From a bacterium (GTDB lineage: Bacteria > DUMJ01), in assembly GCA_049969715.1 (NCBI GenBank), contig JBMFOH010000001.1, positions 72,958-136,957 of the forward strand: a DNA stretch of 64,000 nucleotides, in the 5' to 3' direction. Under the pieces are notes generated by a model. That model saw nothing but the letters and a program-made list of their open reading frames with translations. It was not told the origin of the DNA and did no database searches. Within the stretch, counting starts at the first letter, position 1. Every line of letters starts with the position of its first letter. Positions 1,828-64,000 of the stretch are shown in pieces. Both the position numbers and the translations under genes were made by a program.

Positions 1828-2910
1828 TTACTCTCTATAACAGCCATATTTTTTAGATACGAATATATAAATATATCTATCTCTCCATCTAAGACCCCCT
1901 GGACATTACCAACTTCTAGTCCTGTGCGATGGTCCTTTACTAGGGTATATGGATGTAGTACATATGAGCGGATCTGATTGCCCCAGGCGATATCCTTTCT
2001 CTCACCTCTGAGATTTTGTATCTCTTTTTCTCTTTTTTCTTTTTCAAGAGCGAAGAGTTTAGCCTTGAGGATTCTCATAGCTGTTTCTCTGTTTTGAAGC
2101 TGTGACCTCTCACTCTGACATTCAACTACTATCCCTGTAGGGATATGGACAATCCTTACCGCTGATTCTGTCTTGTTTACATACTGTCCTCCAGGACCAC
2201 TAGCCCTGAATGTATCTATCTTTAAATCCTCCTGTTTTATCTCTATCTCTATTTCATTACCTATGTCTGGAACAACTTCTACAAGGGCAAAGGATGTGTG
2301 TCTTCTATGTGCAGCATCAAATGGGGAGATCCTTACCAATCTATGAACCCCCCGTTCTGACTTCATAAGGCCATAGGCAAATGTTCCTTTAAGGAGGAAG
2401 GTAGTACTTTTTATCCCAGCCTCTTCTCCATAGGAGGTGTCTATAATCTCTATATTAAGCCTGTTTCTTTCAGCCCATCTAGCATACATTCTCAAGAGCA
2501 ACTCAGCCCAATCTTGTGCATCTGTCCCCCCAGCACCAGCGTGGATAGTTACTACTGCATTATAATTATCATATTCTTCCCTAAAGAGTGTCTCTAACTC
2601 AAGGGTATCTAAAAGTTTCTTAGCCCTATCCAATTCAAGTCTTAACTCACCTTCTAAGCTATTGTCTTCTCCTACTAGTTCTAGGAACTCTTTGAGAGAA
2701 TTTATAGCCTTTTCTATCTTTTCTCCTTTTTCTACAAATTCTCTTATCCTACTTACTTCAGATAGCAACCTTTGCGCCTCTGAGGGATTATCCCAGAGGT
2801 CTTCTCTCTGTATCTCTTCTTCTAAACTGGAAAGCCTTATCTTTTGCTTTTCAAAGGTAATCACTGAGATCTCTATATCTCTTTTCGATCTCCAATATTT
2901 CTTCCTTCAT
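1824..2910 (-). CDS. prfB: peptide chain release factor 2, with programmed +1 ribosomal frameshift
   Basis: The long frame (1824..2864) is the RF2 body, including the SPF motif and the GGQ motif (SGPGGQ). A short upstream frame ATG(2910)[22 protein letters not shown] ends in CTT TGA, and the +1 frame continues as EKQKIR... The ATG overlaps the secA stop (TAATG). Confidence 0.85.
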
Positions 2911-5396
2911 TATGCATCCCTTCCACAGCAATTTTTATACTTTTTTCCACTACCACAAGGACACGGGTCATTTCTACCGATCTTCTTTACCTTTACAGGA
3001 GTTTTCTTTGTTTCTGGTGAATTAGTTATAGTATGTGTTCTTTCTGATTTTCTTTCCTCCCTAATCTCTAGCCTCATAAGGAATCTAGTGATATCCCTTC
3101 TTATCCCTGAAAGCATCTCCTGGAACATTTCGTACGCCTCTCTCTTATACTCTATGAGAGGCTCCCTCTGTCCATAAGCTCTTAGCCCTATTCCTTCTTT
3201 CAGGAACTCCATATTCTCTATATGTTCTATCCAATGATTGTCTAATACCCTCAACATTATGTATTTTTCTGCCTGTCTTAGGAGTTCTGTCCCTACAGAT
3301 TCTTCCTTCTCTTCGTATTTTTGAGTTATCTTTTCCTTACATATTTCTGTAATCTCTTCACGTTTTAGTTCTTCTAGCATCTTTTCTGTAACATCTATAT
3401 CAAAGAGGGCTTTTACACTATTCACTAGACCCTCTACATCCCACATATCTCTATGATTTTCAGGAAGATAGGAGTCAACAATTTCTTTAAGAGTATCGTT
3501 CATAACAGACAGGACAGAGGACTTTAAATCCTTGCTAGTTAGTATCTTTTTTCTCTCCTCATATATGACTTTACGCTGGGTCTCCATAACATCGTCATAC
3601 TCTAGGAGTTGTTTGCGGATGTCAAAGTGATAAGATTCTACCTTCTTCTGAGCATTTTCTATAGCCTTTGAGATCATAGGATGCTCTATTGGCTGATTTT
3701 CATCTATCCCCAACTTATCCATAATCCCCTTTACTCTATCGGATCCGAATAGCCTCATTAGTTCGTCTTCTAATGATACATAGAATCTCGAAGAACCTGG
3801 GTCTCCCTGTCTTCCTGCCCTTCCTCTTAATTGATTATCAATTCTTCTAGACTCATGCCTTTCTGTTCCTATTATATGTAATCCACCTAGTTCAACCACT
3901 CCTTCTCCAAGGACTATATCTACCCCTCTTCCAGCCATATTGGTAGCTATTGTAACCATTCCCTTTTCCCCAGCATGGGCTATTATCTGTGCCTCTTTCT
4001 CATGGTATTTGGCATTTAATACCTGATGGGGAATACCTAGATGCTTAAGCATGCTACTTAACATCTCTGACCTTTCTACTGAACGGGTTCCCACAAGGAC
4101 AGGTCGTCCTATCTTGTAGTGAGAAACTATCTCTTGGATAATAGCATTAAATTTGGCTTTTTCTGTCTTATATACTGCATCAGGGTAATCTATTCTAATC
4201 ATAGGTTTATTGGTTGGTATTACTACCACTTCTAATCCATATATCTTTAGGAATTCATCAGCTTCTGTAGCTGCTGTTCCAGTCATCCCTGCAAGCTTCT
4301 TATACATCCTAAAGTAATTCTGTAATGTTATTGTGGCTAAGGTCTGCGCCTCTTGCTTTATCTTTAATCCTTCCTTTGCCTCTATCGCTTGATGGATACC
4401 GTCACTATAACGTCTTCCATACATAAGCCTTCCTGTGAACTCGTCTACTATTATTACCTCTCCATCATTCACTATATACTCTACATCTTTTTTGAATAGT
4501 TCCTTAGCTTTAAGAGCGGCAACAAGGTAGGATAGATAGTCTATGTCTCCTTCTCCATAGATATTTTCTATTCCTAGCATCTTTTCTACCTTTCTTGCCC
4601 CTACATCTGTGAGTACTACATTTTTTAGCTTCTCATCTACAGTATAATCTGTGTCTTTTATTAGTCTCCTTGCTACTTGAGCGAACTGATAATATAGCTT
4701 TGTCGGTTTATCTGCCATACCTGAGATAATAAGAGGAGTTCTTGCCTCATCTATAAGGATACTATCCACCTCATCTACTATGGCATAGTTGAACTCTCTC
4801 TGGACAACCTCTTCCATGCTTAAAGCCATATTATCTCTAAGATAATCGAAGCCAAATTCGGTATTCGTTCCATAGGTAATATCAGAATTATATGCTTCTC
4901 TTCGTTCTTCCGTTGTAGAGTCATGTTGAAGAAGTCCTACCTTGAGTCCTAGAGATTCGTATATGGGTCCCATCCAGTACCTATCTCTCTTGGCTAGATA
5001 GTCATTTACTGTAACTATGTGAACCCCTCTTCCCGTGAGGGCATTGAGATATGCTGGCATAGTAGCTACAAGGGTTTTACCTTCTCCTGTTTTCATCTCT
5101 GCAATCTTACCCTCATGAAGGACGATTGCTCCTATAAGCTGAACATCAAAGGGCCTCATATTTGTCTTTCTCTTCGCTACCTCTCTAACTACAGCGAATG
5201 CCTCTACCATAATATCGTCTAAGGTTTCTCCTCGGTTGAGTCTATCCTTAAATTCCAAGGTCTTTACCGAGAGTTCTTCATCAGTAAGGATAGAAACCCT
5301 AGATTCTAACTCATTTATCTCCTCTACTATTCTCCAATATTTGGCTAACTCTCTATCGGCAGCTTTACCGATAAGTTTTTCTAAAAGTTTAAACAT
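2910..5396 (-). CDS. secA: preprotein translocase ATPase SecA
   Basis: 828 aa with DEAD-like motor motifs and a C-terminal zinc-binding tail [18 protein letters not shown]. Confidence 0.95.
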
Positions 5397-11315: not shown

Positions 11316-12611
11316 TTACAGATCTCCTTTTGATACAAGTTTTACAAATAGGGGCATAAGCTGATGCCCTAAGAGCCTTCCTAGGGAACCTTTTGCACAC
11401 TCCTTCTCTGAGTATTGTGTAGTTCCATCGCTAGAGATCTTATCTCCTGAAACGATAAGAGGTACAGGGTCATCTGAATGTGCCTTTAGTGTGCAAGGGG
11501 TAGAGTGGTCAGCTGTTACTGTGATTACTACATTAGAAAGGTCTATTTTTGGCAAGAGATTCCCGAAAAAGTACTTATCTATATTAGAGATACTGTCCCT
11601 TTTTTCTAGGGCTTTTCCATCGTGACCTGGGACATCAGGTCCTTTGAGATGTATATAGAGGGCATCGAATTTATTAAGAGATTGAATTGCTTTTTCCGCC
11701 CTTAGAGGATAATCTATCTCAGGATTTCCAGTTGGAGTAGGCAGTTCTACTATCTCCATACCGGTCAACATTGCTATCCCCATTTCTACAGGCATCTCGG
11801 CAAAACAGCCAAACCTTAAGCCAAATAGATTCTTTATATCAGGGAATTCTGGTAACCTATCTCCTGCATCCCTAGTAAGTATTACATTCCCTATCATCTT
11901 ACCTTGAGACTTTCTCTTTCTATTGACCTCTGATTCATTCAATACAAGATGACTCTTCTGGACAAATTCGTTTGTTAGGTCGGCTGCCCTCTTTGCCTCT
12001 ATACTGCTATCTAGAGGCTGGCAGACCTGAAGGTAGGGCTCAAACTTTTCTTTAGCTACCCCGAAGTATCCAACTTTATCATACGCTGGATCAGTATTGG
12101 TGATATTAGCTGATAGAGGACCATCTAGACATCTTATCCATAAGACACCCCTATGTTCTACAGTACTAATGAACTTGAATATGGCAGGATAGCTAGTAAG
12201 TTTTACCTTACTATTGACCTCTTCTGCCAACAGTTTTGCCTCCTCAGTAGATAGGTCTCTACCTGCTCTTCTATCCACAAGACGCCTATCTTCATCCATC
12301 GTAGCGAAATTAACCCTAAAGGCAAGGTCTCCTGGTTTTAAATCAATTCCAGAGGCAAAACATTCCAATGGACCTCTACCTGTATAATACTTTTCTGCCT
12401 CATATCCTAATATACTTATAACCGCTATGTCAGACTCTGGTGCTATCCCTGGTCCTACTGTATCTACAATGCCACTTTTCCCACTTTTTGCTAGTCCATC
12501 CATATAGGGAGTGTCGGCTGCCTCAAGGGGAGTCTTTCCTCCTAATTCAGGGCAGGGTCTATCACCTAGCCCATCCAGTACTATATAGAGTAGTTTATAC
12601 ACTGTTATCAC
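11316..12611 (-). CDS. apgM: cofactor-independent phosphoglycerate mutase, archaeal type
   Basis: 431 aa with LDGLGDRP near the N-terminus and TADHSTP near the C-terminus (metal-dependent alkaline-phosphatase-like fold). Confidence 0.75.
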   Translation of the reverse strand: MITVYKLLYIVLDGLGDRPCPELGGKTPLEAADTPYMDGLAKSGKSGIVDTVGPGIAPESDIAVISILGYEAEKYYTGRGPLECFASGIDLKPGDLAFRVNFATMDEDRRLVDRRAGRDLSTEEAKLLAEEVNSKVKLTSYPAIFKFISTVEHRGVLWIRCLDGPLSANITNTDPAYDKVGYFGVAKEKFEPYLQVCQPLDSSIEAKRAADLTNEFVQKSHLVLNESEVNRKRKSQGKMIGNVILTRDAGDRLPEFPDIKNLFGLRFGCFAEMPVEMGIAMLTGMEIVELPTPTGNPEIDYPLRAEKAIQSLNKFDALYIHLKGPDVPGHDGKALEKRDSISNIDKYFFGNLLPKIDLSNVVITVTADHSTPCTLKAHSDDPVPLIVSGDKISSDGTTQYSEKECAKGSLGRLLGHQLMPLFVKLVSKGDL

Positions 12612-12674: not shown

Positions 12675-13847
12675 TTATTCTATCTTAAACATAGTTATTA
12701 GGACTACAGCAATCAATGAGCATACCGCTCCAAAAAAGAACGGTGTGGATGGAGATATCTTATCCCATAGTAAACCAGCAATAGCACTTGCTGGTATTGC
12801 CAGTATCCCTACTGAGGCATTATACAATCCAAATGCAGTTCCCCTTATTTTTTCATCTACCAGATGTACTACTAAGGATTTCGCTACTCCTTCTGTAGTT
12901 GAGTAGTATACCCCATAAATGATGTATAGGACCCATATATGCCAGGGCAACCTCGCTATGGCAAAACCTATATAGGTAATAGCATATATAAGCCATCCCA
13001 ACCTTATTACATTAACTCTTCCGATCTTATCCGAGAGGACCCCACTTGGGAGAGAGAGCAATGCATAGAATAGATTAAATATAGCTATGATTACTGGTAT
13101 TGTTGTAGGCGATACCCCTACGTTTTCAGCTCTTAGGATCAAAAAAGCATCACTACTGTTTCCTAATGTAAAGACCATCATTCCAATAAAGAACAAAAGG
13201 AACTTGCCTTTAAGTAGTGATGGGTCTATCTTGAATCCTGTTCCTACCTTTTCTCCTACCCTTTCTTTTACAAATAAACCTATGAGGATTATTGTTACAA
13301 AGGCAACAAGTCCACCGATTATAAATATATATCTATATTTCATCAATCCAAATGAGGCGAACCTTATCAATAGATATGTAGCTATTAATGGACCAACAAA
13401 TGAACCTAATGTATCTAACATCCTCTGAAGACCAAAGGCAAAACCTGTTCTAGATTTACTAGATGACTTTGCTACAAGTGCATCTCTTGGGGCATCCTTT
13501 AATCCCTTCCCAACTCCATCTAACAACCTAAGACCTAAAACACTACCTGCCCCTGTTGTTAAGAATAATAGGAGTCTTCCTATAGCAGACAATAGGTATC
13601 CAATGAAAACGATAGACTTCCTTTTACCTAGTTTATCAGAGATGATTCCAGAGAGGATTTTAAATATACTCACTACAGTGGTCATACTCCCCTCAATGAG
13701 GCCTATAGTCTCTTTACTTAGACCTAGTACCTGGGCGTAGAATGTGGGGAGTATAGGCGATATCATATCCTGGCTTAGACCACCAAAGAAGGCGACCCAT
13801 CCCAATACAATAATATTTTTTGTTCCTTCTTTATTGTTCCCTTTCAA
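12675..13847 (-). CDS. MFS transporter
   Basis: 390 aa, about 12 TM helices, MFS-like loop motifs (G..SDK.GRR). Confidence 0.75.
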   Translation of the reverse strand: MKGNNKEGTKNIIVLGWVAFFGGLSQDMISPILPTFYAQVLGLSKETIGLIEGSMTTVVSIFKILSGIISDKLGKRKSIVFIGYLLSAIGRLLLFLTTGAGSVLGLRLLDGVGKGLKDAPRDALVAKSSSKSRTGFAFGLQRMLDTLGSFVGPLIATYLLIRFASFGLMKYRYIFIIGGLVAFVTIILIGLFVKERVGEKVGTGFKIDPSLLKGKFLLFFIGMMVFTLGNSSDAFLILRAENVGVSPTTIPVIIAIFNLFYALLSLPSGVLSDKIGRVNVIRLGWLIYAITYIGFAIARLPWHIWVLYIIYGVYYSTTEGVAKSLVVHLVDEKIRGTAFGLYNASVGILAIPASAIAGLLWDKISPSTPFFFGAVCSLIAVVLITMFKIE

Positions 13848-13867: not shown

Positions 13868-13903
13868 AATAAAAATAGACTTCTACCTAATTTTAGGTAG
13901 AAG
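13868..13903 (-). terminator. intrinsic terminator downstream of the GH3 gene
   Basis: Inverted repeat CTTCTACCTA/TAGGTAGAAG (13880-13903). On the minus-strand transcript it is followed by a T-rich tract (TATTTTTATTATAG). Confidence 0.5.
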
Positions 13904-13953
13904 TCATCATCCCTTTAAGGGATATTTCTGTTAGGCTTCATCACCTGTGAAAA

Positions 13954-52298: not shown

Positions 52299-52429
52299 TT
52301 TTATCCCTCCTAACGAAATAATAGACTAATAGAAACGCCTGTAGAACCTTACTAGTATTTCATTCTATGGACTTCTAATATGCTCCATAAAGGTGTCAAC
52401 CTCCTTTCCTCGAAGGAATTGACATATTC

Positions 52430-52565
52430 TGATAGGCAGGTCTCCTGGCTCCTGGCATCGACCTTGTGCCTTCCCAGTTTCCCAGTGGCATATACAAGGC
52501 CCTTTAAGTCAGTTACAGTAGCGGGACTGCAGTGGATTTTCACCACTTTCCCTTTTCATCTCTGA
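52430..52565 (-). promoter_or_regulatory. cobalamin (AdoCbl) riboswitch
   Basis: The minus-strand RNA reads AAAAGGGAAAGUGGUGAAAAUCCACUGCAGUCCCGCUACUGUAACUGA ... AUGCCACUGGGAAACUGGGAAGGC ... GCCAGGAGCCAGGAGACCUGCC. This matches the B12-element consensus, including the B12 box AGCCAGGAGACCUGCC and the GCCACUG motif. Confidence 0.85.
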
Positions 52566-52637
52566 TAAGAGAACCTATCAGATTATGTACTAGAGAGTAT
52601 GATACTATTTTCCTCTCTCAAAATCAAGCAAGATATT

Positions 52638-54541: not shown

Positions 54542-55294
54542 TTATTCTCCTTTCATATGATTTATCATACTGGCCAGATAACCTGCTCCAAATCCATTGT
54601 CTATATTTACCACTGATAAGCCAGGAACACAGCTATTTAACATAGTTAAGAGTGCAGATAGACCCTTAAAGTTAGCCCCATAACCTACACTTGTAGGTAC
54701 CCCAATTACAGGTTTATCTACAAGCCCAGCCACAACACTTGGAAGTGCCCCTTCCATTCCAGCCACTGCTACTATCACATTTGCCTTTCTTATCCTTTCT
54801 AGGTTGTCAAGCAATCTGTGGAGCCCTGCAACCCCTACATCGTATACTTTCTCCACATAGTTTCCCATAATAAGTGCTGTTTCAACTGCCTCCTCTGCTA
54901 TCGGAAGGTCAGCGGTACCTGCACTTATGACTGTTATATGCCCTATAGGGTCTATGTGAGTTTTTGATATAGTAATAGTTTTAGCCAATTCATTGTATCT
55001 AGCCTCAGGGATATCTAAGACTACCCTATTAAATACCTCTTCTTCCGCCCTAGTAGCCAATACTTTAGAATTTCTAGAGGCTAGTCTTTTTATAATCTCT
55101 ACCGACTGATCTATCTTCTTCCCTTGGCAGAAGACTACCTCAGGAAACCCCTTTCTTAAAGCCCTATGATGGTCAAGACGAGCATATCCTAGGTCTTCAT
55201 AGGGAAGAAGAGTAAGTTTCTCTATTACCTCCTCTATACCTATATTCCCTTCCTTTAGATTTAATAGTAATTCTTTAAGTAACTCCTTATTCAT
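54542..55294 (-). CDS. larB: pyridinium-3,5-biscarboxylic acid mononucleotide synthase LarB (PurE-like)
   Basis: 250 aa with a PurE-like fold and ISAGTADLPIAEEA. Confidence 0.85.
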   Translation of the reverse strand: MNKELLKELLLNLKEGNIGIEEVIEKLTLLPYEDLGYARLDHHRALRKGFPEVVFCQGKKIDQSVEIIKRLASRNSKVLATRAEEEVFNRVVLDIPEARYNELAKTITISKTHIDPIGHITVISAGTADLPIAEEAVETALIMGNYVEKVYDVGVAGLHRLLDNLERIRKANVIVAVAGMEGALPSVVAGLVDKPVIGVPTSVGYGANFKGLSALLTMLNSCVPGLSVVNIDNGFGAGYLASMINHMKGE

Positions 55295-56103
55295 AAAAGT
55301 CCCTTCTTTACGCCTATATTCATACTTCCAGTTTTATAACCCTCTAGGTCCATAGTGATATAAGAGTAGCCTATCTCTTTTAAATATTTTACTATATCCT
55401 CTCTGTATTTTAACAGTTTCTCCATATCTTCAGACAGGACTTCTATCTTAGCGAGATTTCCAAAGTGCCTTAGTCTCACTTGCCTAAATCCTAAATCCAT
55501 TAGTATCCTTTCTCCTCTATCTATCTTTGATAATATTTCTTGAGTAAGTTTTTCTCCATAAGGCACCCTGGTTGCTAGACATGCCAGAGGAGGTTTATCC
55601 CAGGTAGAAAGCCCCAACTCTTTCGATAACATCCTTATCTCTAGTTTTGTAAGTCTAGCATCTTTTAATGGGCTTATTATCCCAAGTTCTTTTAGTGCTT
55701 TTATCCCAGGCCTATAGTCAGTAATATCATCTGCATTAGAACCATCAGCCACAGTATATATATGATATTTTTTAGCCATCTCTTTTATGAGAGAAAAAAC
55801 TTTCACCTTACAGTAGTAGCATCTATCAGGAGGATTACTAGCTATCATCTCATCGTTAAGGACGTCGATATCTATTATCTCCTGTTTTACTCCTATCTCC
55901 TTTGCTAGAGCCTTTGATTCTTCTATCTCCCACCTGGGATGAATCTGTCCAGATACCGTAACTGCTACAACATTATTTCCTAGAACCATACTACTTACCT
56001 TTAATAGGAATGTACTATCTACACCCCCAGAAAATGCAACAACGAGTCTATCATAATTTAAGAGTATATTCTTTAACGCTTCAAACTTCTCTACATATTC
56101 CAT
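55291..56103 (-). CDS. larE: ATP-dependent sacrificial sulfur transferase LarE (PP-loop ATP pyrophosphatase)
   Basis: PP-loop VVAFSGGVDST and the conserved Cys segment PPLACLATR. Confidence 0.85.
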   Translation of the reverse strand: MEYVEKFEALKNILLNYDRLVVAFSGGVDSTFLLKVSSMVLGNNVVAVTVSGQIHPRWEIEESKALAKEIGVKQEIIDIDVLNDEMIASNPPDRCYYCKVKVFSLIKEMAKKYHIYTVADGSNADDITDYRPGIKALKELGIISPLKDARLTKLEIRMLSKELGLSTWDKPPLACLATRVPYGEKLTQEILSKIDRGERILMDLGFRQVRLRHFGNLAKIEVLSEDMEKLLKYREDIVKYLKEIGYSYITMDLEGYKTGSMNIGVKKGLL

Positions 56104-56894
56104 CCTAATCTCCTATCAATATATAGAATAACTATATTTAAAATTACTGTTAAGCCTAGAGCTAGGATATCAGAAAAATACACCTTGCTAGAATTTAAGT
56201 ATCTTATATTTTTGTTGACACCTCTAGAGACCATACCTTGATAGACCTCTCTACTAAGCTGTTGGGTCTTTATCGCTAGGACCCCAACCGTTGAACCTAG
56301 CCACTGCTGTTCTCTTCTGGTATCTGTTATTATAGTTCTCATCTTTTTTGCTAGGAATAGATTCTCTGCGGTCTCTAAGAGGAGGAAGATATACCTATAA
56401 CTCATACTGATGATACTTACAAATACATTAGGTACTCCTATATATCTTAGAGAAAAGAGGAGCTTTGTCCATCTTGTAGTGAGAATGACAAGAGTCACAT
56501 AAGAGATAGATGTTGCCACCCTCAGGACAAGACGCACCATAACAACCAATCCTTCTATAGTAAATCCAAATTCGAGCCTCCCTGGTACTATAAACAGAGA
56601 GGGAATAGCGATTACTAACGTAAATATAGGTATGAATATCCAGACCTTTCTGAAAAATAATGCAAGATTTATCTTACTAAGATAGGCTAGGAGTATGCTA
56701 AAAAGATAGAGTAATAATAGAGAGTAAATATTTGTCATAAGGCTTATTCCGATGATAAAGATGATCAAAGATATAACCTTTACAGGTTCATTTAACCTTG
56801 ATATAAATGAATCTGGCATATAATCTACTATAAAAGCCTCCTTTAAGAAGGAGGCCATCTCTTTTAATGTCTTATCTAATACGTTCCTACTCAA
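56091..56894 (-). CDS. cbiQ: ECF transporter transmembrane (T) component CbiQ/NikQ-like
   Basis: 267 aa, about 5-6 TM helices, CbiQ-like. Confidence 0.7.
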   Translation of the reverse strand: MSRNVLDKTLKEMASFLKEAFIVDYMPDSFISRLNEPVKVISLIIFIIGISLMTNIYSLLLLYLFSILLAYLSKINLALFFRKVWIFIPIFTLVIAIPSLFIVPGRLEFGFTIEGLVVMVRLVLRVATSISYVTLVILTTRWTKLLFSLRYIGVPNVFVSIISMSYRYIFLLLETAENLFLAKKMRTIITDTRREQQWLGSTVGVLAIKTQQLSREVYQGMVSRGVNKNIRYLNSSKVYFSDILALGLTVILNIVILYIDRRLGWNM

Positions 56895-56896
56895 GG

Positions 56897-57217
56897 TTAT
56901 CTCCTAGATAATGCCCTTCCTATGAGAAACGCTACACCTGCTACTATTCCTACTCCAATAAGTCCTGAGATTATATATCCTATGCTCTGATAGGTAAGAG
57001 GCTTCCCCTCCCATCCCTTTAGATTATAGTCTGGAAGTAAAGGCCTTCCTAGGGATGAAAGTCTTTCTAGACCTGCTGGCACATATCCGATAAGTTCCTT
57101 TATCTCGTCTGGACCCCATTCCCCCCAAGCTGAGCCAGCCTTTACTAGGTATGGGATAATAATTCCCAATGGAGAAAGAATGACTAGTAAGATTATTATC
57201 TTCCAAAGTCTATGCAT
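56897..57217 (-). CDS. small membrane component of Ni/Co ECF transporter (CbiN/NikN- or PDGLE-domain-like)
   Basis: 106 aa with TM helices at both ends flanking a soluble segment (GEWGPDEIKELIG). Sits between the cbiM and cbiQ genes. Confidence 0.5.
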   Translation of the reverse strand: MHRLWKIIILLVILSPLGIIIPYLVKAGSAWGEWGPDEIKELIGYVPAGLERLSSLGRPLLPDYNLKGWEGKPLTYQSIGYIISGLIGVGIVAGVAFLIGRALSRR

Positions 57218-57886
57218 ACTCCCACTCCTTTATAAAATTCGTCCTCAATAGATAGGCTAATGCAGCCATAGTTACTATGGCTTCTACCCAACCAAAAATT
57301 ACAAGATGTTCTCCTAACATAGCAGGTACCGTAATAGAAAGAGGATATGGAGAATATAGAGGGACCCCTTTATCAGTATGACTTATCAAAGGTTGTAATC
57401 CAAGCTCTATACCTGCAAATAGAGCTGCTACATTCAGCCCAACATACCCTCCTATTCCTGCTGCTATTATCCTTCTTTTTGAATTTAAAGGGCTATTCCC
57501 ACTTATCAACTTATATGTATAATATCCGACAAATGGAAGGATAAAACCCATATTGAAACAGTTAGCTCCAATAGCAGTGATCCCTCCGTCTCCAAAGATA
57601 AGGGCTTGAATTACAAGAACAATAGTAATAACTATTAATGTTGCCCATGGACCTATAAGAATAGAGAGGATCATCCCACCAACTGCATGTCCTGTAGTAC
57701 CTCCTGGGATAGGTACATTAAACATCATAATGACAAAAGAGAATGCTGCTCCAAGGGCAATCAATGGTACCTGAGACATCTTTAAGGTCTTATTCAAAAC
57801 CTTACTTGCCTTGAACCATAAAGGTATCATTACCCCAAACATCGTCCCATATGTCTGAGGGCCTAAATACCCATCAGGGATATGCA
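57210..57886 (-). CDS. cbiM: Ni/Co ECF transporter substrate-specific component CbiM/NikM
   Basis: I prefer the GTG start at 57886, giving the canonical MHIPDGYL N-terminus needed for metal coordination. A GGAGGTG RBS lies 5 nt upstream. The ORF-track start at 57914 adds 9 residues. Confidence 0.8.
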
Positions 57887-57899
57887 CAATATCACCTCC

Positions 57900-57955
57900 A
57901 AAAATAAAGACCACAAAAGTCTCCTAGCTCATCTAGGATATTGACCTTCGTGGTC
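57900..57955 (-). promoter_or_regulatory. terminator-like hairpin in the cbiM leader (candidate attenuator)
   Basis: Minus-strand RNA: GACCAC-gaaggucaaua-UCCUAG-augag-CUAGGA-gacuuuu-GUGGUC-UUUAUUUUU, immediately followed by RBS GGAGGUG and the GTG start. Confidence 0.4.
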
Positions 57956-58132: not shown

Positions 58133-60849
58133 TGGACAGTTTGTTAAATCTCTTAAATGAGAGCCTTAAAGGTATGGGTTGGGAGATAGAGAGGTTCAAG
58201 TATGAGGTGAATTTTGCCATAAAACTCACTGAAGCATTTCCAGATAAGAAAGATGAGTGGCTAAGGCTTATAGAGAAAGCCGTCTCATTGGTCTCTCAGA
58301 ACCTCGGTAAGAAAGAAACTAGTTCTTTAGTAGAAGAAGGAGAAAAGGTTCTTTCTCCAATAGGTGAAATTGCCAAGACCTTTACTATCCACTATGTAGG
58401 CCATGCCCATATAGATATGAATTGGCTATGGGACTGGCCAGAGACTGTAGATACGGCATATAAGACGTTTATTACTGCCATTAGACTTATGGATGAGTTC
58501 CCAGACTTTAAGTTCTCTCAGAGTCAAACCTCTGTATATTCTGCTATGGAAAAGTATAGCCCTGAGACGTTTGAGATGATTAAGGAAAAGGTCAAAAAAG
58601 GGCAATGGGAAGTAACTGCTAATCATTGGGTGGAAGGAGATAAAAATCTTGCCTCAGGAGAGGCGCTAATAAGACATATCCTCTATACCAAGAGATACTT
58701 CAACGAGAAGTTTGGATTTTCCTATGATGCTATAAAGATTGACTGGGAGCCAGATACCTTTGGACATCACTGGATGCATCCTCAGATATTGAGAAAGTCA
58801 GGTATAACAAGATACTATTTCTGTAGAGCAGGAAGAGGGCCTCGCATCTTTTGGTGGGCTAGTCCTGATGGTTCAAAAATACTTGCCTGGGATGATGGTA
58901 AACTTTGGTATCTAGGACCTGTGAAACCAGAGGATGTGGTAGAGGCAGTAGAACTCTATAAAAGTACTGGGATGAAAGATTATCTAGTTGTCTATGGGGT
59001 AGGCGACCATGGAGGTGGTCCAACAAGAAGGGATCTCCAGTTGATAGAAGAGATGAAATCCTGGCCTATATTCCCAAAGGTTAAGTGTAGCACTACTGAT
59101 GAATTTTTCTCTATAGCAGAAAGGTTTGGAGATAGATTCCCAGTAGTGAATGATGAATTGAATTTTGTATTCAGAGGATGTTATACGTCTCAAAGTAATA
59201 TAAAAGAGGCAAACAAAAGAGCAGAGACCTTACTGACTACTGTAGAAACTATTGGCCTATTAGCCAGTAAATTGTCTGGTAAGATGTATTCTGAAGAGCT
59301 CTTAAAAGAAGGATGGATAAATACTCTGTTTAATCAGTTCCATGATATCTTACCAGGATCTGGGATACCTGAGACATACAAGTATGCCCAAGGATTATTC
59401 CAGAATGCAAAGGCAGCTGGAAATATGATAAAAGAACTCTCTCTGAAGGCGATAGTTAAAGAGATAGATACAAAGAGTTCCATTGATGGACTTCCCATCG
59501 TCGTATTTAATCCTTTAGGATGGACAAGACAGGATACTATAACAGTTGATATATATGATACGTTTAGTGAGAAGGATACCCTTGAGCTTGTAGATGAGGA
59601 GGGCAATACTTATCCTGTTCAATATAAGGAATACTCCTTCTTCCAGACCTGTTTAAGGGTAACGTTTACCACTAAGGATGTTCCTGGGTACGGTTATAAG
59701 ACCTATTATTTGAGACGGAGAGAAAAAGGATTTGTGAATTCAGAAGTAAAGGTTACTGATGCTTTCACTGGACAGGTCACTGAGAGTGGGGTAAGAGCTA
59801 GCAACAAATACATCCTAGAAAATGAGTATCTAAAGGTAACCCTAGAGACAGGTTCGGGAGCCATTACAAGTATTATAGACAAAGCTACCGGCAAAGAGTT
59901 TGTCCCTAAAGGAAGCAAATCTGCTCTTCTTCAGATGCTCTATGAGGCGCCTCATCCAATGAGTGCTTGGGAGATTGGACAGATAATAAATACTGTAGAT
60001 TTAGATACAGGTGCCACCCTTGAGGTGATAGAAAAGGGTCCTTCTAGGGCTATTGTGCGAAGTAAAAGGAGATATGGTAACTCTGAATTTATCCTTGATA
60101 CCATACTAAACAATAATGTCCCTAGAATAGATTTTAGACTTGAGTTATTGTGGTTTGAATTTGGAAGTAGAGAAGTAGGTGTACCTATGCTAAAGGTCGC
60201 CTTTCCAGTGAATGCGATTAAGGGAAGAGCAAGATTTGACATTCCATTTGGTAGTATAGAAAGACCAGCCAATGGGGAGGAAGTCCCTAGCCAAAAATGG
60301 GTAGACCTTACTGGGATAGATACTCAAGGTGAAGCCCTTGGGATGGCCCTTTCAAGTACAGCTAAGTATGGATATGATGTAAAAGACAATACTATTAGAA
60401 TGACTGTCTTGAGAAGTTCATATGAGCCTGATCCAGTGCCAGAAAGAGGAAGATATGAATTTACATTTTCCTTACTACCACATATTGGTGAATTGGCTCC
60501 TTCCAATCTTACAAGATTTGGAAACGAAGTCAACTATCCTCTAATCCCCTATGTAACAGATATGCATCCAGGTAGGTTAGAGAGAGTCTTAGAAGTAATT
60601 AAGGTGGAGCCAAGGAACATAGTAGTATCTATCCTTAAGAAGGCAGAAGACAATAATGATATAATACTAAGGGTCTATGAGGTCGATGGTTACGAGGTAG
60701 AATCAAAAATAATGCTTGGGCTACCTTTTAGTTCTTATGTAGAAACGGATCTTCTTGAACAACCTATAAAGGATGTAGTCCAATGTAAGGATGCAGTTAT
60801 AACACTAGATTTAAAGCCATACGAAATAAAAACAGTAAGAATAAGATAG
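58133..60849 (+). CDS. alpha-mannosidase, glycoside hydrolase family 38
   Basis: About 905 aa with the GH38 N-terminal catalytic region (HAHIDMNWLW), a central domain and a C-terminal beta-sandwich. The ATG at 58133 with an AAAGGAGTG RBS is preferred over the TTG at 58114. Confidence 0.75.
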
Positions 60850-60877: not shown

Positions 60878-62011
60878 CTACAGCACTATCATCATTCCTA
60901 GTGCTGCTACTATCCCCATAATTCCACCAAAATAGAACGGAGCACTAGCTCCTAGAAGATTCCAGAGTAATCCTGCAATAGAAGATGCCGGTAATAGCCC
61001 TACTCCTTCTAGGGTGGCATGAAGCCCGATCAGAGTAGCCCTTGTTTCTACTGGGGCTATATCCGATATTAAAGCCTTTTGCACTCCTTCAGTGAGCCCT
61101 ATATAGATTCCATAAAGACCAAAGAGTGTCCAAAGATAAGAAGCCTTAGTAACTATTGCAAATCCAAGATAGACAATCCCATAGAATACATATCCTATAA
61201 CGATCAGTCTCTTTCTGCCAATTCTATCTGAAAGCCTTCCAGCAGGATATGCGAATACCATATATACAAGATTATAGGCAAGATACAATAGAAGGACTGT
61301 TGCATCGTTGAAGCCTAAATTCTTTGCCCTAAGGAGTAGAAATTGGTTGGAAGAATTTCCCAGTGTAAATAGAAAGGTCACTATGAGAAAGCCTTTGAGT
61401 CTTTTATCTAGACCCGACCATTTTAGTTTTGGTCTTGAATTACTAGATACCTTTGCCTGTTTCCCCTCTCTTGCAAAGAATAATACCCCGATGCCAAGGA
61501 ATGCAGGTACAAGTGAATACAGGAATACCCTAGAATAGTCCCCTGAGAATCTTGTAAAGAAATAATAGGCAAGTATCACGCCGATAGCTGCCCCAAGGGT
61601 ATCCATAGTCCTATGGAGACCAAAAGCTCTTCCTCTCTTTGTTTGTTCTGTTGAGTCCGCTATCAATGCATCTCTAGGAGCGGTTCTTATACCTTTACCA
61701 AATCTATCAATCCATCGTCCGGCAAATACCATCCCCCATGAGCGTGATAGATAGAGGAATACTTTGCCTATAGTAGAAGACCCATATCCCAGTATTGCTA
61801 GAGGCTTTCTCTTTCCTACTAGATCAGATATATATCCAGAAAAGACCCTCAATAGGCTGGCAGTACTTTCGGCTACCCCTTCTATTATCCCAACTATAGC
61901 TGGGCTAGCTCCAAGTTTTGATACTAAATATAGAGGGATAAGAGGATAGACCATCTCAGTGCTTATATCGGTAAGAAAGCTTACAATACCTAGAATTATA
62001 ACATTAAACAT
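60878..62011 (-). CDS. MFS transporter
   Basis: 377 aa, about 12 TM helices, same subfamily as the 12675..13847 gene. Confidence 0.75.
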   Translation of the reverse strand: MFNVIILGIVSFLTDISTEMVYPLIPLYLVSKLGASPAIVGIIEGVAESTASLLRVFSGYISDLVGKRKPLAILGYGSSTIGKVFLYLSRSWGMVFAGRWIDRFGKGIRTAPRDALIADSTEQTKRGRAFGLHRTMDTLGAAIGVILAYYFFTRFSGDYSRVFLYSLVPAFLGIGVLFFAREGKQAKVSSNSRPKLKWSGLDKRLKGFLIVTFLFTLGNSSNQFLLLRAKNLGFNDATVLLLYLAYNLVYMVFAYPAGRLSDRIGRKRLIVIGYVFYGIVYLGFAIVTKASYLWTLFGLYGIYIGLTEGVQKALISDIAPVETRATLIGLHATLEGVGLLPASSIAGLLWNLLGASAPFYFGGIMGIVAALGMMIVL

Positions 62012-62048
62012 TTTTCCCTCCTTGGTAATTGAGATACAGATTATTATA

Positions 62049-62426
62049 CTACTTTTTCAGAATTTTTTCTGCCTCGAAAGCGGCTTTTCTCACTGTTACA
62101 TATGGATGAGATTTTGCCCTTTCTATCACATCCAGAGCCCTTACACCGCCAATCTTTGCTAGGGCTATTACTGCTTCTCCTGCTATGTATGGGTCTTGCT
62201 CTTCTATTGCTGCAGCTAGGGCATCTATAGCCTGAGGGTTGCCTATTTCCCCAAGGATATATGCTGCTCTTCTAGCTGTAAAGCCATCTTTCGACTTTAA
62301 AGCAGAAATGAGCTTTTCTAAATATGTATTATTTTCTCCTAGATTAGCCCTACAGAAAGGGCATATTTTTGTATCCTTAGGGATTTCTTCCCAACAATTT
62401 GGGCAGAAGTAATGTAATTTACCCAT
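62049..62426 (-). CDS. zinc-ribbon plus HEAT-repeat (PBS lyase-like) protein
   Basis: N-terminal CPNC...CPFC zinc ribbon, then E-Z type HEAT repeats (ARRAAYILGEIGNPQAIDAL...). Confidence 0.65.
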   Translation of the reverse strand: MGKLHYFCPNCWEEIPKDTKICPFCRANLGENNTYLEKLISALKSKDGFTARRAAYILGEIGNPQAIDALAAAIEEQDPYIAGEAVIALAKIGGVRALDVIERAKSHPYVTVRKAAFEAEKILKK

Positions 62427-62434
62427 AATAAATT

Positions 62435-63058
62435 TTACACCTTCTTCTTCCCTACTAATTTCTCTATTGCCTTGTATCGAGCTCTATATTCTTTTCCCCT
62501 TGGCTCATTTTGGAATCTATAATCACTCTTACGAATAATCTCTGAAAGATCAAATGATAACTCTTCTAGCCTTTGTTTTTCTAATTCTATTAGAAATTTT
62601 TTAGTCTCTTCGTTATTGGCAAGATTAATACACATCTTTAAATGAGGATAGCATAATCCATCGGAGGCTATATACTTTTGATAAAATGCATCCTCTTGCA
62701 GGTATTTTAAGAAAACCTCTACATATCTTTTACTAGCATTAGCTTCTACATTACACACTGGACAAGAAATTTCAGGATCTAAAGGATTACCTATATATTT
62801 GATATGATGGTCTACCAAGCGTTTATATATGATGGCTGTCCCTAAAACTTCCTGATAAGAATATAAAAGCCATGAGTGCAAATTACAAAAACCTCCACTT
62901 TTTACGATTCTTTCTGCCGTATGAGAATCATTTACATATTCATAGAGGAGAGATTTTACATAGCTATGTACAACCTCTTTTGTAAGGGTACATATAGGGC
63001 AACCCTCTCCTTCTAATGCATCACATAACTTTGAATATAATACATCCTTCTCCTTCAT
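62435..63058 (-). CDS. cysteine-rich protein of unknown function (possibly DUF6062-like)
   Basis: 207 aa carrying two copies of a C-x2-C ... C-x-L-H arrangement (CPIC...CNLH; CPVC...CYPH). GGAGGGG RBS. Confidence 0.55.
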   Translation of the reverse strand: MKEKDVLYSKLCDALEGEGCPICTLTKEVVHSYVKSLLYEYVNDSHTAERIVKSGGFCNLHSWLLYSYQEVLGTAIIYKRLVDHHIKYIGNPLDPEISCPVCNVEANASKRYVEVFLKYLQEDAFYQKYIASDGLCYPHLKMCINLANNEETKKFLIELEKQRLEELSFDLSEIIRKSDYRFQNEPRGKEYRARYKAIEKLVGKKKV

Positions 63059-63089
63059 TTATTAGCCCCTCCATTAAAAATCAAAAAGC

Positions 63090-63128
63090 TCCTACTAGAA
63101 CTAATCTAGTAGGAGCTATCAGCCCTGC
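63090..63128 (-). terminator. intrinsic-terminator-like hairpin in 5' leader of the 62435..63058 operon
   Basis: Minus-strand RNA: CUCCUACUAG-auuaguu-CUAGUAGGAG-c-UUUUUGAUUUUU, about 15 nt upstream of the RBS. Confidence 0.45.
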
Positions 63129-63214
63129 TTAAGGCAAATACTTTGGACGAGCTCCATCGTCCAAAAAGATTATACTATTCTTTTCTCTCTTCGTCAAATA
63201 AAATAGGAAGAGTA

Positions 63215-63223
63215 TGTTATAAT
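63215..63223 (+). promoter_or_regulatory. extended -10 promoter element (TGtTATAAT) for the GH130 gene
   Basis: TGTTATAAT is about 30 nt upstream of the ATG at 63254, with an AGGAGGG RBS. Confidence 0.4.
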
Positions 63224-63253
63224 AAACTAGAATTTGGAAAAGGAGGGAGAAAA

Positions 63254-64000
63254 ATGGAGATCAAGATTTTAGGACAACCTCTATCTAATATACCCTGGGA
63301 GGATAAGCCTAAGGATTGTAAAGAGATTGTCTGGCGTTCTAAGAGAAATCCCATAATTAGAAGGAATCAGGCTAAGGATGCAAATAGTATCTTCAATAGT
63401 GCTGTGGTTCCCTTTGAAGACGGGTTTGCTGGAATCTTTAGAGTAGATGATAGGTCTAGGTCTATGAATATAAGAAGGGGGTTCTCTAAAGATGGAATCA
63501 ATTGGGAGATTGATGATAAACCTATTGATTTTATTCAAGAGACTAGAGACCCTTTAATAAGTGAGTATAAGTATGATCCGAGGGTTACATTTATAGAAGA
63601 TAGGTATTATATCACTTGGTGTAACGGTTATTATGGGCCTACCATAGGGGTTGGCTATACTTTCGACTTTGAAAGGTTTTATCAGATTGAGAATGCATTC
63701 CTTCCATACAATAGAAATGGAGTCTTATTTCCAAGAAAGATCAATGGAAAGTATGCAATATTAAGTAGGCCGTCTGACACTGGGCATACTGCTTTTGGGG
63801 ATATATTCTACAGTGAGAGCCCAGATATGATATATTGGGGGCGTCATAGGCATGTGATGTCTAGAGGTTACACTAGTTGGCAATCGTTAAAGATAGGAGC
63901 TGGACCTACACCTATTGAAACCAGTGAGGGTTGGCTACTTATATATCATGGAGTATTGTTATCCTGTAATGGCTATGTCTATAGTTTTGGAGCAGCTTTA
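63254..64000 (+). CDS. GH130 family beta-mannoside phosphorylase/glycosidase (3' end outside window)
   Basis: The frame is open from ATG 63254 to the window end (249 codons). The translation [19 protein letters not shown]...[19 protein letters not shown]... matches GH130 mannosylglucose/mannooligosaccharide phosphorylases. Confidence 0.7.

Follow-up and report, generated by a model that had tools for sequence, protein, structure and literature searches.

A probable fluoride riboswitch of the crcB motif class in the leader of an operon encoding DUF6062, zinc-ribbon/HEAT and MFS proteins

RESULTS AND DISCUSSION

The leader that precedes a three-gene operon on the minus strand (aptamer at 63162..63109 in the 64,000-nucleotide stretch of bacterial DNA analyzed here, called the window below) is very probably a fluoride-responsive transcriptional ON riboswitch, a member of the crcB motif family RF01734. 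As such, the RNA is an ordinary member of a textbook riboswitch class and does not change our understanding of riboswitches. The more interesting part is the module that it precedes, which encodes a DUF6062 protein, a protein with a zinc ribbon and HEAT repeats, and an MFS transporter, none of them an established fluoride-resistance gene. DUF6062 is a family without a known function for which the riboswitch supplies a clue at the level of the ligand, and in our sample roughly one DUF6062 gene in three directly follows a fluoride riboswitch.

Architecture of the leader

The initial annotation of this region described a minus-strand TATAAT lying upstream of two hairpins in the same leader. This -10 hexamer is present (63174..63169) and is accompanied by a -35 hexamer, TTGACG, so that the promoter TTGACG-17-TATAAT matches the consensus at 11 of 12 positions and is the top promoter-like site between positions 60500 and 64000 in a consensus scan. 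Judging by the sequence, the operon would be transcribed from near G63162, 7 nucleotides downstream of the -10.

Both hairpins were found as described except for their stems, the lengths of which had been understated, the perfect arms running to 9 and 13 nucleotides. Hairpin 1 (GGACGA-UGGAGC-UCGUCC) corresponds to a DNA inverted repeat that a repeat finder scores as perfect over 9 nucleotides (63142-63150 / 63157-63165). Hairpin 2 has perfect 13-nucleotide arms, AGCUCCUACUAGA and UCUAGUAGGAGCU (63117-63105 / 63099-63087), around a 5-nucleotide UUAGU loop; the U-tract UUUUUGAUUUUU follows at 63086-63075, on its 3' side. The hairpin alone has a folding energy of -21.9 kcal/mol, and the 13-bp hairpin with its U-tract is scored as a terminator by the consensus scan. 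It does stand just upstream of the GGAGGGG ribosome-binding site, with 14 nucleotides between stem and site. Read along the minus strand, the region runs TTGACG-17-TATAAT, CUUUUU, GGACGAUGGAGCUCGUCC, AAAGUAUUU, GCCUUAAGCAGGGC and UGAU, and from UGAU onward AGCUCCUACUAGA-UUAGU-UCUAGUAGGAGCU, UUUUUGAUUUUU and AAU-GGAGGGG-CUAAUAA-AUG, ending in the DUF6062 start codon at 63058-63056. The 115-nucleotide leader folds at -40.9 kcal/mol, compared with -26.8 ± 3.4 kcal/mol for 200 dinucleotide shuffles, none of which is as stable (z = -4.15).

The repeat finder also returned a third complementarity, absent from the initial annotation, between GGAGCU (63155-63150) and AGCUCC (63117-63112). Here the first hairpin's loop can pair with the 5' arm of the second, as a pseudoknot, and this pseudoknot is the identifying element of the structure. 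The features of the leader and of the divergent promoter next to it are as follows.

63192..63197, minus strand: -35 hexamer TTGACG of the operon promoter (consensus promoter scan)
63169..63174, minus strand: -10 hexamer TATAAT of the operon promoter (sequence and consensus scan)
63109..63162, minus strand: probable fluoride riboswitch aptamer, from P1 to the conserved CUAC (Rfam and leave-out covariance model R2)
63145..63162, minus strand: P1, GGACG / CGUCC (63162-63158 / 63149-63145), the hairpin 1 described earlier
63150..63155, minus strand: pseudoknot 5' strand GGAGCU, within the P1 loop, complementary at 6/6 positions to 63112-63117
63122..63135, minus strand: P2, GCCU / GGGC with loop UAAGCA (P2 in the alignments to the Rfam model and to R2)
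63112..63117, minus strand: pseudoknot 3' strand AGCUCC, also the base of the terminator 5' arm and thus the putative switching sequence
63075..63117, minus strand: terminator, hairpin 2 with U-tract (terminator scan, 13 pairs, 6 G-C)
63066..63072, minus strand: ribosome-binding site GGAGGGG, 14 nucleotides 3' of the stem and 7 nucleotides 5' of the ATG
63215..63223, plus strand: extended -10 TGTTATAAT of the divergent GH130 gene, outside the riboswitch

The last of these agrees with the -10 candidate that had been placed at 63215 on the side of the GH130 gene, the ATG of which is at 63254 on the plus strand.

Assignment to the fluoride riboswitch family

An Rfam scan, the check proposed at the outset, did identify the leader, yet only below the family's gathering score. 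In a permissive scan of positions 62000 to 64000, RF01734 matched 63170..63103 on the minus strand over model positions 1-64 of 64 with 28.1 bits (E = 3.3e-5). This is less than the gathering score of 34 bits, which is an annotation threshold and not a structural feature, and the site goes unreported in a gathering-threshold Rfam scan of the whole window. The Rfam model has no way to score a pseudoknot. In its alignment, hairpin 1 becomes P1, GCCU/GGGC becomes P2, and the segments GAUG, CUGAU and CUCCUAC fall in register. P1 closes an 8-nucleotide loop, AUGGAGCU, that begins with AUG, and P2 is placed directly 5' of the conserved UGAU. The conserved pocket nucleotides GAUG, UGAU and CUAC are present, as are the A and the U of the linchpin pair. 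The J1/2 linker is 9 nucleotides long (AAAGUAUUU) and is without the consensus AAC.

We also scored the site with a leave-out covariance model, R2, built from 29 elements, none of them from the window's lineage. With this model the site scores 45.3 bits (E = 2.5e-11), more than any other match in the 64-kb window.

The PyrG leader family (RF02371) also matches here (63154..63077, 37.3 bits, E = 0.0072), and it shares with this leader a short length and a strong terminator and U-tract at the end. This match is what favors attenuation of the PyrG type, by reiterative transcription, or another leader mechanism that involves no riboswitch. The reiterative-transcription mechanism needs a GGGC start. 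The initially transcribed sequence here is UUUUUGGACG, not GGGC, the downstream gene encodes DUF6062 and not PyrG, and the match, which covers essentially the terminator and U-tract, stays well short of the 65-bit gathering score and leaves P2 and the pseudoknot unexplained. On all three counts that define the family (score, downstream gene and start sequence) we rejected the PyrG leader, and we find a mechanism of this kind scarcely credible for the locus.

Pairing conserved across relatives

Related elements were collected through the downstream gene, using DUF6062 relatives at 98%, at 83% and, in many cases, at 28 to 40% identity; the distant set consisted of 80 DUF6062 loci from species-representative genomes. 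An initial regular expression for the motif was too strict, finding only 4 distant loci, and was superseded by a pseudoknot-aware descriptor and then by covariance models. The descriptor required P1, GAU, xAC and a loop able to pair with the 6 nucleotides that follow UGAU; applied to 666 kb, it returned 24 sites, compared with 0 to 5 in each of 20 shuffles, and nearly all of the real sites lie just 5' of a DUF6062 gene.

An alignment of 19 of these elements supports each helix. P1, P2 and the pseudoknot are together 93.3% paired, and the pseudoknot helix by itself is 99.1% paired, both values being inflated as regards P1 and the pseudoknot because the elements were chosen partly by complementarity in those two helices. 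P2 and the covariation of pair types are unaffected by this selection. Compensatory changes are seen in 12 of the 15 pairs, distributed over P1 (4/5, with a G-C closing pair in 19/19 elements), P2 (4/4) and the pseudoknot (4/6). The covariation score is 0.513, versus 0.254 for column shuffles, of which 0 of 500 reach 0.513, and no more than 0.18 when the partners are slid. Matches of the first covariance model that were not among its seeds likewise proved 6/6 complementary in the pseudoknot, for which that model had no term. The window element also has the expected nucleotide in all of the 15 to 16 columns that do not vary among these 19 elements, including GAUG, UGAU and CUAC.

Three loci with 83% protein identity (L001 to L003) and one with 98% (L004) have identical three-gene operon content, and a fluoride riboswitch match is found upstream of the operon in each of them (30.1 and 26.6 bits with Rfam, 43.8 and 35.0 bits with R2). 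All four retain the promoter and the U-tract as well. The alignment of orthologous intergenic regions that had been suggested as a check showed that the region from the -35 to the ATG is retained at an 83%-identity locus. In L001 the promoter reads TTGACA-17-TATAAT, the aptamer, the hairpin and the U-tract are kept, and the terminator stem changes from CUACUAG/CUAGUAG in the window to CUACAG/CUGUAG, a compensatory change. The L001 sequence 5' of the -35 is unrelated to that of the window, and no GH130 gene is adjacent to the operon in L001 to L003. Since the leader is kept in the orthologs while the upstream DNA and the GH130 neighbor are not, the element travels with the operon and not with the GH130 promoter.

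The initial annotation had offered two readings of the inverted repeats, either an attenuator or riboswitch-like arrangement or operator sites through which a regulator would act on the divergent GH130 promoter. The first is now made specific, as an RF01734 fluoride riboswitch with a terminator platform. The second, in which a dimeric regulator would bind the repeats as DNA and control both the GH130 and the operon promoters, draws on the presence of perfect palindromes within a divergent promoter region, but the minus-strand -10 lies upstream of both repeats, which are therefore part of the transcribed leader and coincide there with two stems of a recognized RNA fold, P1 and the terminator. 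Homologs conserve the pairing of these stems and not their sequence, L001 to L003 retain the leader without a GH130 neighbor, and the fold recurs 5' of DUF6062 genes in unrelated phyla with differing sequences. We therefore hold operators to be very improbable.

The only rival that carries some weight is that the element is a decayed or re-specified relative of the fluoride riboswitches, binding no fluoride or some other ligand, with a terminator that is constitutive or otherwise regulated. An Rfam score below the gathering cutoff and an atypical J1/2 would fit such a history, as would the second copy in the window (13951..13892), which does look decayed while its counterpart in a 91%-identity ortholog is intact. 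Against this, the leader element has P1 at 5/5, the pseudoknot at 6/6 and every family-invariant position intact, it scores 45.3 bits with the leave-out model, and orthologs at 83% identity preserve it through compensatory changes; J1/2, moreover, varies even among elements above the gathering score. Decay or re-specification thus seems improbable to us, and a functional fluoride riboswitch remains the preferred reading. A chance origin of the leader structure was also considered and is contradicted by the data above.

Predicted control of transcription

In transcriptional fluoride riboswitches, an intrinsic terminator uses as its base the strand that forms the 3' side of the pseudoknot; fluoride stabilizes long-range contacts, including the A40-U48 linchpin, and the forming terminator then cannot displace the pseudoknot (PMC11077080). 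The leader in the window has the same overlap. Its terminator 5' arm (63117-63105) begins with the pseudoknot 3' strand, and when the pseudoknot strands are barred from other pairing in a folding calculation, only a 7-bp A/U-rich stem remains of the terminator.

On this basis, transcription would start at approximately G63162 from TTGACG-17-TATAAT, and the nascent RNA would form P1 (GGACG/CGUCC) and P2 (GCCU/GGGC), followed by the 6-bp GGAGCU-AGCUCC pseudoknot. If fluoride is present, a Mg2+-F- cluster would be bound as in characterized members, locking the pseudoknot and the long-range A-U linchpin. The locked AGCUCC would then be unavailable for the base of the 13-bp terminator, and polymerase would continue through the U-tract into the genes for DUF6062, the zinc-ribbon/HEAT protein and the MFS transporter. 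If fluoride is absent, UCUAGUAGGAGCU would displace the pseudoknot, the terminator would form, and transcripts would stop at roughly 83 to 88 nucleotides. By analogy, read-through induced by fluoride (an ON switch) is the most likely direction of the response, which, like its size and fluoride binding itself, we infer.

A close counterpart is the crcB riboswitch of Bacillus cereus, which has the same aptamer fold of P1, P2 and a 6-bp pseudoknot and in which, too, the pseudoknot 3' strand forms the terminator base and the fluoride-locked pseudoknot blocks strand displacement (PMC11077080). The two differ in what lies downstream, which is crcB in B. cereus and the genes for DUF6062, zinc-ribbon/HEAT and MFS proteins in the window. 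The window element also has a longer J1/2 (9 nucleotides) and a pseudoknot made up of Watson-Crick pairs only, the last of them U-A, and it differs further in falling below the Rfam gathering threshold.

In the Thermotoga petrophila aptamer, the phosphates of the GAUG and UGAU segments hold the Mg2+-F- cluster. The window has both segments and, with its nucleotides mapped to the T. petrophila numbering, the A and the U of the A40-U48 linchpin. Compared with the T. petrophila aptamer of the crystal structure, the window pseudoknot (GGAGCU/AGCUCC) is less rich in G+C and J1/2 differs in length. Position 42 is an A paired with U in the window, compared with a G paired with C in T. petrophila, and it covaries within the family.

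Genes under the predicted control

The three genes of the operon, all on the minus strand, are as follows.

62435..63058, minus strand: gene 1, DUF6062 protein of 207 amino acids (Pfam PF19538, 90.9 bits)
62049..62426, minus strand: gene 2, N-terminal zinc ribbon and HEAT repeats, 125 amino acids (Pfam HEAT_2, 53.4 bits)
60878..62011, minus strand: gene 3, MFS transporter of 377 amino acids (Pfam MFS_1, 164.1 bits)

The source annotation of the operon goes no further than "DUF6062 family protein" and "MFS transporter." The DUF6062 match is far above the Pfam gathering score of 27. The protein carries a CxxC..CxxH..CxxC..CxxH pattern in which eight residues (C20, C23, C58, H61, C99, C102, C136 and H139) do not vary among 36 aligned sequences and from which two Cys3His sites are predicted, and its AlphaFold2 model is all-alpha (pLDDT 91.8). 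Neither fold nor sequence searches detected a relative in the PDB, NCBIfam returned just a spurious 18-bit CrcB match, and a literature search, which did not extend to the original fluoride-riboswitch gene-association tables, yielded no mention of DUF6062. Gene 2 also matches zinc-ribbon models of Pfam weakly, and PADLOC found no defense-system match except to a generic HEAT model. The MFS transporter has superfamily-level matches only in NCBIfam, and its homologs elsewhere adjoin DUF6062 or fluoride genes. We saw no crcB or CLC-F gene in the 64-kb window, so for this organism the connection with fluoride physiology is drawn from comparisons with other genomes.

A recurring link between DUF6062 and fluoride riboswitches

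The comparative data indicate that the arrangement is widespread. At 19 of the 80 distant DUF6062 loci, a covariance model match with E < 1e-5 lies on the same strand within approximately 400 nucleotides 5' of the gene, and 4 further loci have weaker matches. Three more (L075, L081 and L046) have the riboswitch elsewhere in or beside the operon. This brings the total to approximately 26 of 80 loci with a fluoride riboswitch, a count in which 16 of the elements are themselves seeds of the covariance model used. Rfam's curated model at its gathering threshold confirms the element directly upstream at 11 loci (L079, L019, L055, L041, L025, L021, L008, L071, L040, L061 and L033) and also confirms elements in L075, L081 and L046. 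Chloroflexota, Bacillota, Spirochaetota, Omnitrophota, Aerophobetes, Armatimonadota and UBP3 are among the lineages represented by the loci, and the link to fluoride riboswitches is seen in at least eight lineages of phylum level.

Several elements in this set have features of their own. Those of the Chloroflexota type (L049, L059, L060, L066, L068, L072, L077 and L078, at approximately 3870-3960 in most) have long J1/2-P2 insertions, some have CUAU instead of CUAC, and all pair at 6/6 positions in the pseudoknot while remaining below the Rfam gathering score. Elements at 3048-3110 in L046 and 5870-5813 in L075 are below it as well. L049 has two fluoride riboswitches back to back in divergent orientation (2565-2628, minus strand, and 2709-2791, plus strand), and several Chloroflexota loci appear to have two tandem DUF6062 paralogs behind one riboswitch (ORF pairs in L049, L059 and L078). 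In L079 (3616-3967), DUF6062 begins approximately 350 nucleotides beyond a strong riboswitch match (58.3 bits); this spacer holds short hydrophobic ORFs and no obvious terminator.

Because many copies fall below the Rfam gathering threshold, their leaders go unannotated and fluoride regulons are under-called. Sub-threshold copies linked to DUF6062, especially those in Chloroflexota with long P2 insertions, are skipped by standard pipelines.

Typical partners of fluoride riboswitches are exporters, Na+/H+ antiporters and enolase (PMC11139923). Among the plus-strand ORFs downstream of the riboswitch at the 26 loci, Pfam identified the following numbers of genes: DUF6062, 29; HEAT_2, 6; MFS_1, 5; Na_H_Exchanger, 3; MutS_V, 3; Usp, 2; CRCB, 2; Enolase, 1; and DUF190, 1. 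The association of the window's genes with fluoride toxicity is indirect, in that homologs of the regulated genes share riboswitch operons with CrcB, DUF190, Na+/H+ antiporter, Usp, MutS-related and enolase genes. In L081, for example, the riboswitch is followed by CrcB, DUF190 and DUF6062. A Clostridium sp. genome has the order riboswitch, enolase, DUF190 and MFS with CrcB further along, and Thermoanaerobacterium xylanolyticum has enolase, MFS, riboswitch, a 110-amino-acid ORF, HEAT and MFS. For the MFS clade alone, a riboswitch was found with only 5 of 80 metagenomic homologs, so DUF6062 is the more specific marker.

A close counterpart of the window's operon is L167, where the shared gene module follows a fluoride riboswitch scoring 50.7 bits, above the Rfam gathering score. 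Its order is riboswitch, DUF6062, a 110-amino-acid ORF, HEAT, MFS and MutS-related, and its MFS transporter has an identical counterpart in Caldanaerobacter subterraneus subsp. tengcongensis MB4. The HEAT/zinc-ribbon proteins of the two operons are homologous (32% identity, E = 1e-11). L167 differs from the window in its additional 110-amino-acid ORF and MutS-related genes, and its MFS transporter is of the type of the window's second paralog, being 74% identical to that encoded at 12675-13847.

The small ORF, which encodes 110 to 132 amino acids and belongs to no Pfam family (1757-2089 in L167, 1764-2096 in L168 and 3772-4170 in L166), sits between DUF6062 or the riboswitch and HEAT or MFS in the Caldanaerobacter-type, Thermoanaerobacterium and Clostridium loci, and it is absent from the window operon. 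A separate 211-amino-acid ORF in L166 showed no relation to DUF6062 by hhalign.

The genomic link to fluoride riboswitches bears on association and not on the biochemical activity of the DUF6062, HEAT and MFS proteins. We offer tentatively, and consider it on balance rather doubtful, the idea that DUF6062, the zinc-ribbon/HEAT protein and this MFS clade form a widespread module for responding to fluoride that has gone unrecognized and that is separate from the CrcB/Fluc and CLC-F exporters. The transporter of such a module might export fluoride or a metal-fluoride complex, or else import a protective solute. DUF6062, all-alpha in its model and lacking a solved relative, might then bind metal through Cys3His sites and work beside the transporter. 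A possible additional mechanism of fluoride tolerance is in this way now directly testable.

Other elements in the window

A second fluoride-riboswitch-like element (13951..13892, minus strand) lies between a GH3 gene and a paralog of the operon's MFS transporter (12675-13847, minus strand; 38.5% identical to the operon MFS), upstream of the latter. It is followed by a terminator of its own (13905..13878, with a U-tract to approximately 13866; -18.4 kcal/mol). This element scores 21.5 bits with Rfam and 25.6 bits with the leave-out model, and with P1 paired at 3/5 positions (AGGUG/UAACA) and the pseudoknot at 5/6, it looks decayed. In L165, the ortholog at 91% identity, an intact copy occupies the same place, with AGGUG/CACCU, a 6/6 pseudoknot and an Rfam score of 40.4 bits. 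Directly downstream of this riboswitch-preceded MFS paralog is a gene for a cofactor-independent phosphoglycerate mutase (PhosphMutase/Metalloenzyme), at 11316-12611 (minus strand) in the window and in the same placement in L165 (3745-5031). The phosphoglycerate mutase step immediately precedes the fluoride-sensitive enolase in glycolysis.

Next to the operon, the divergent GH130 promoter consists of the extended -10 TGTTATAAT without a good -35, and the two back-to-back -10 regions form an imperfect 17-nucleotide inverted repeat (76%; 63169-63185 / 63207-63223). The sole Rfam family above its gathering score in the window is a cobalamin riboswitch (52418-52593, minus strand; 117.9 bits). At 55291-57914 on the minus strand, the source annotation names a LarE-like sulfur transferase, and the three membrane-protein ORFs that adjoin its gene look, by eye from their translations, like a metal transporter of the CbiM/CbiN/CbiQ type.
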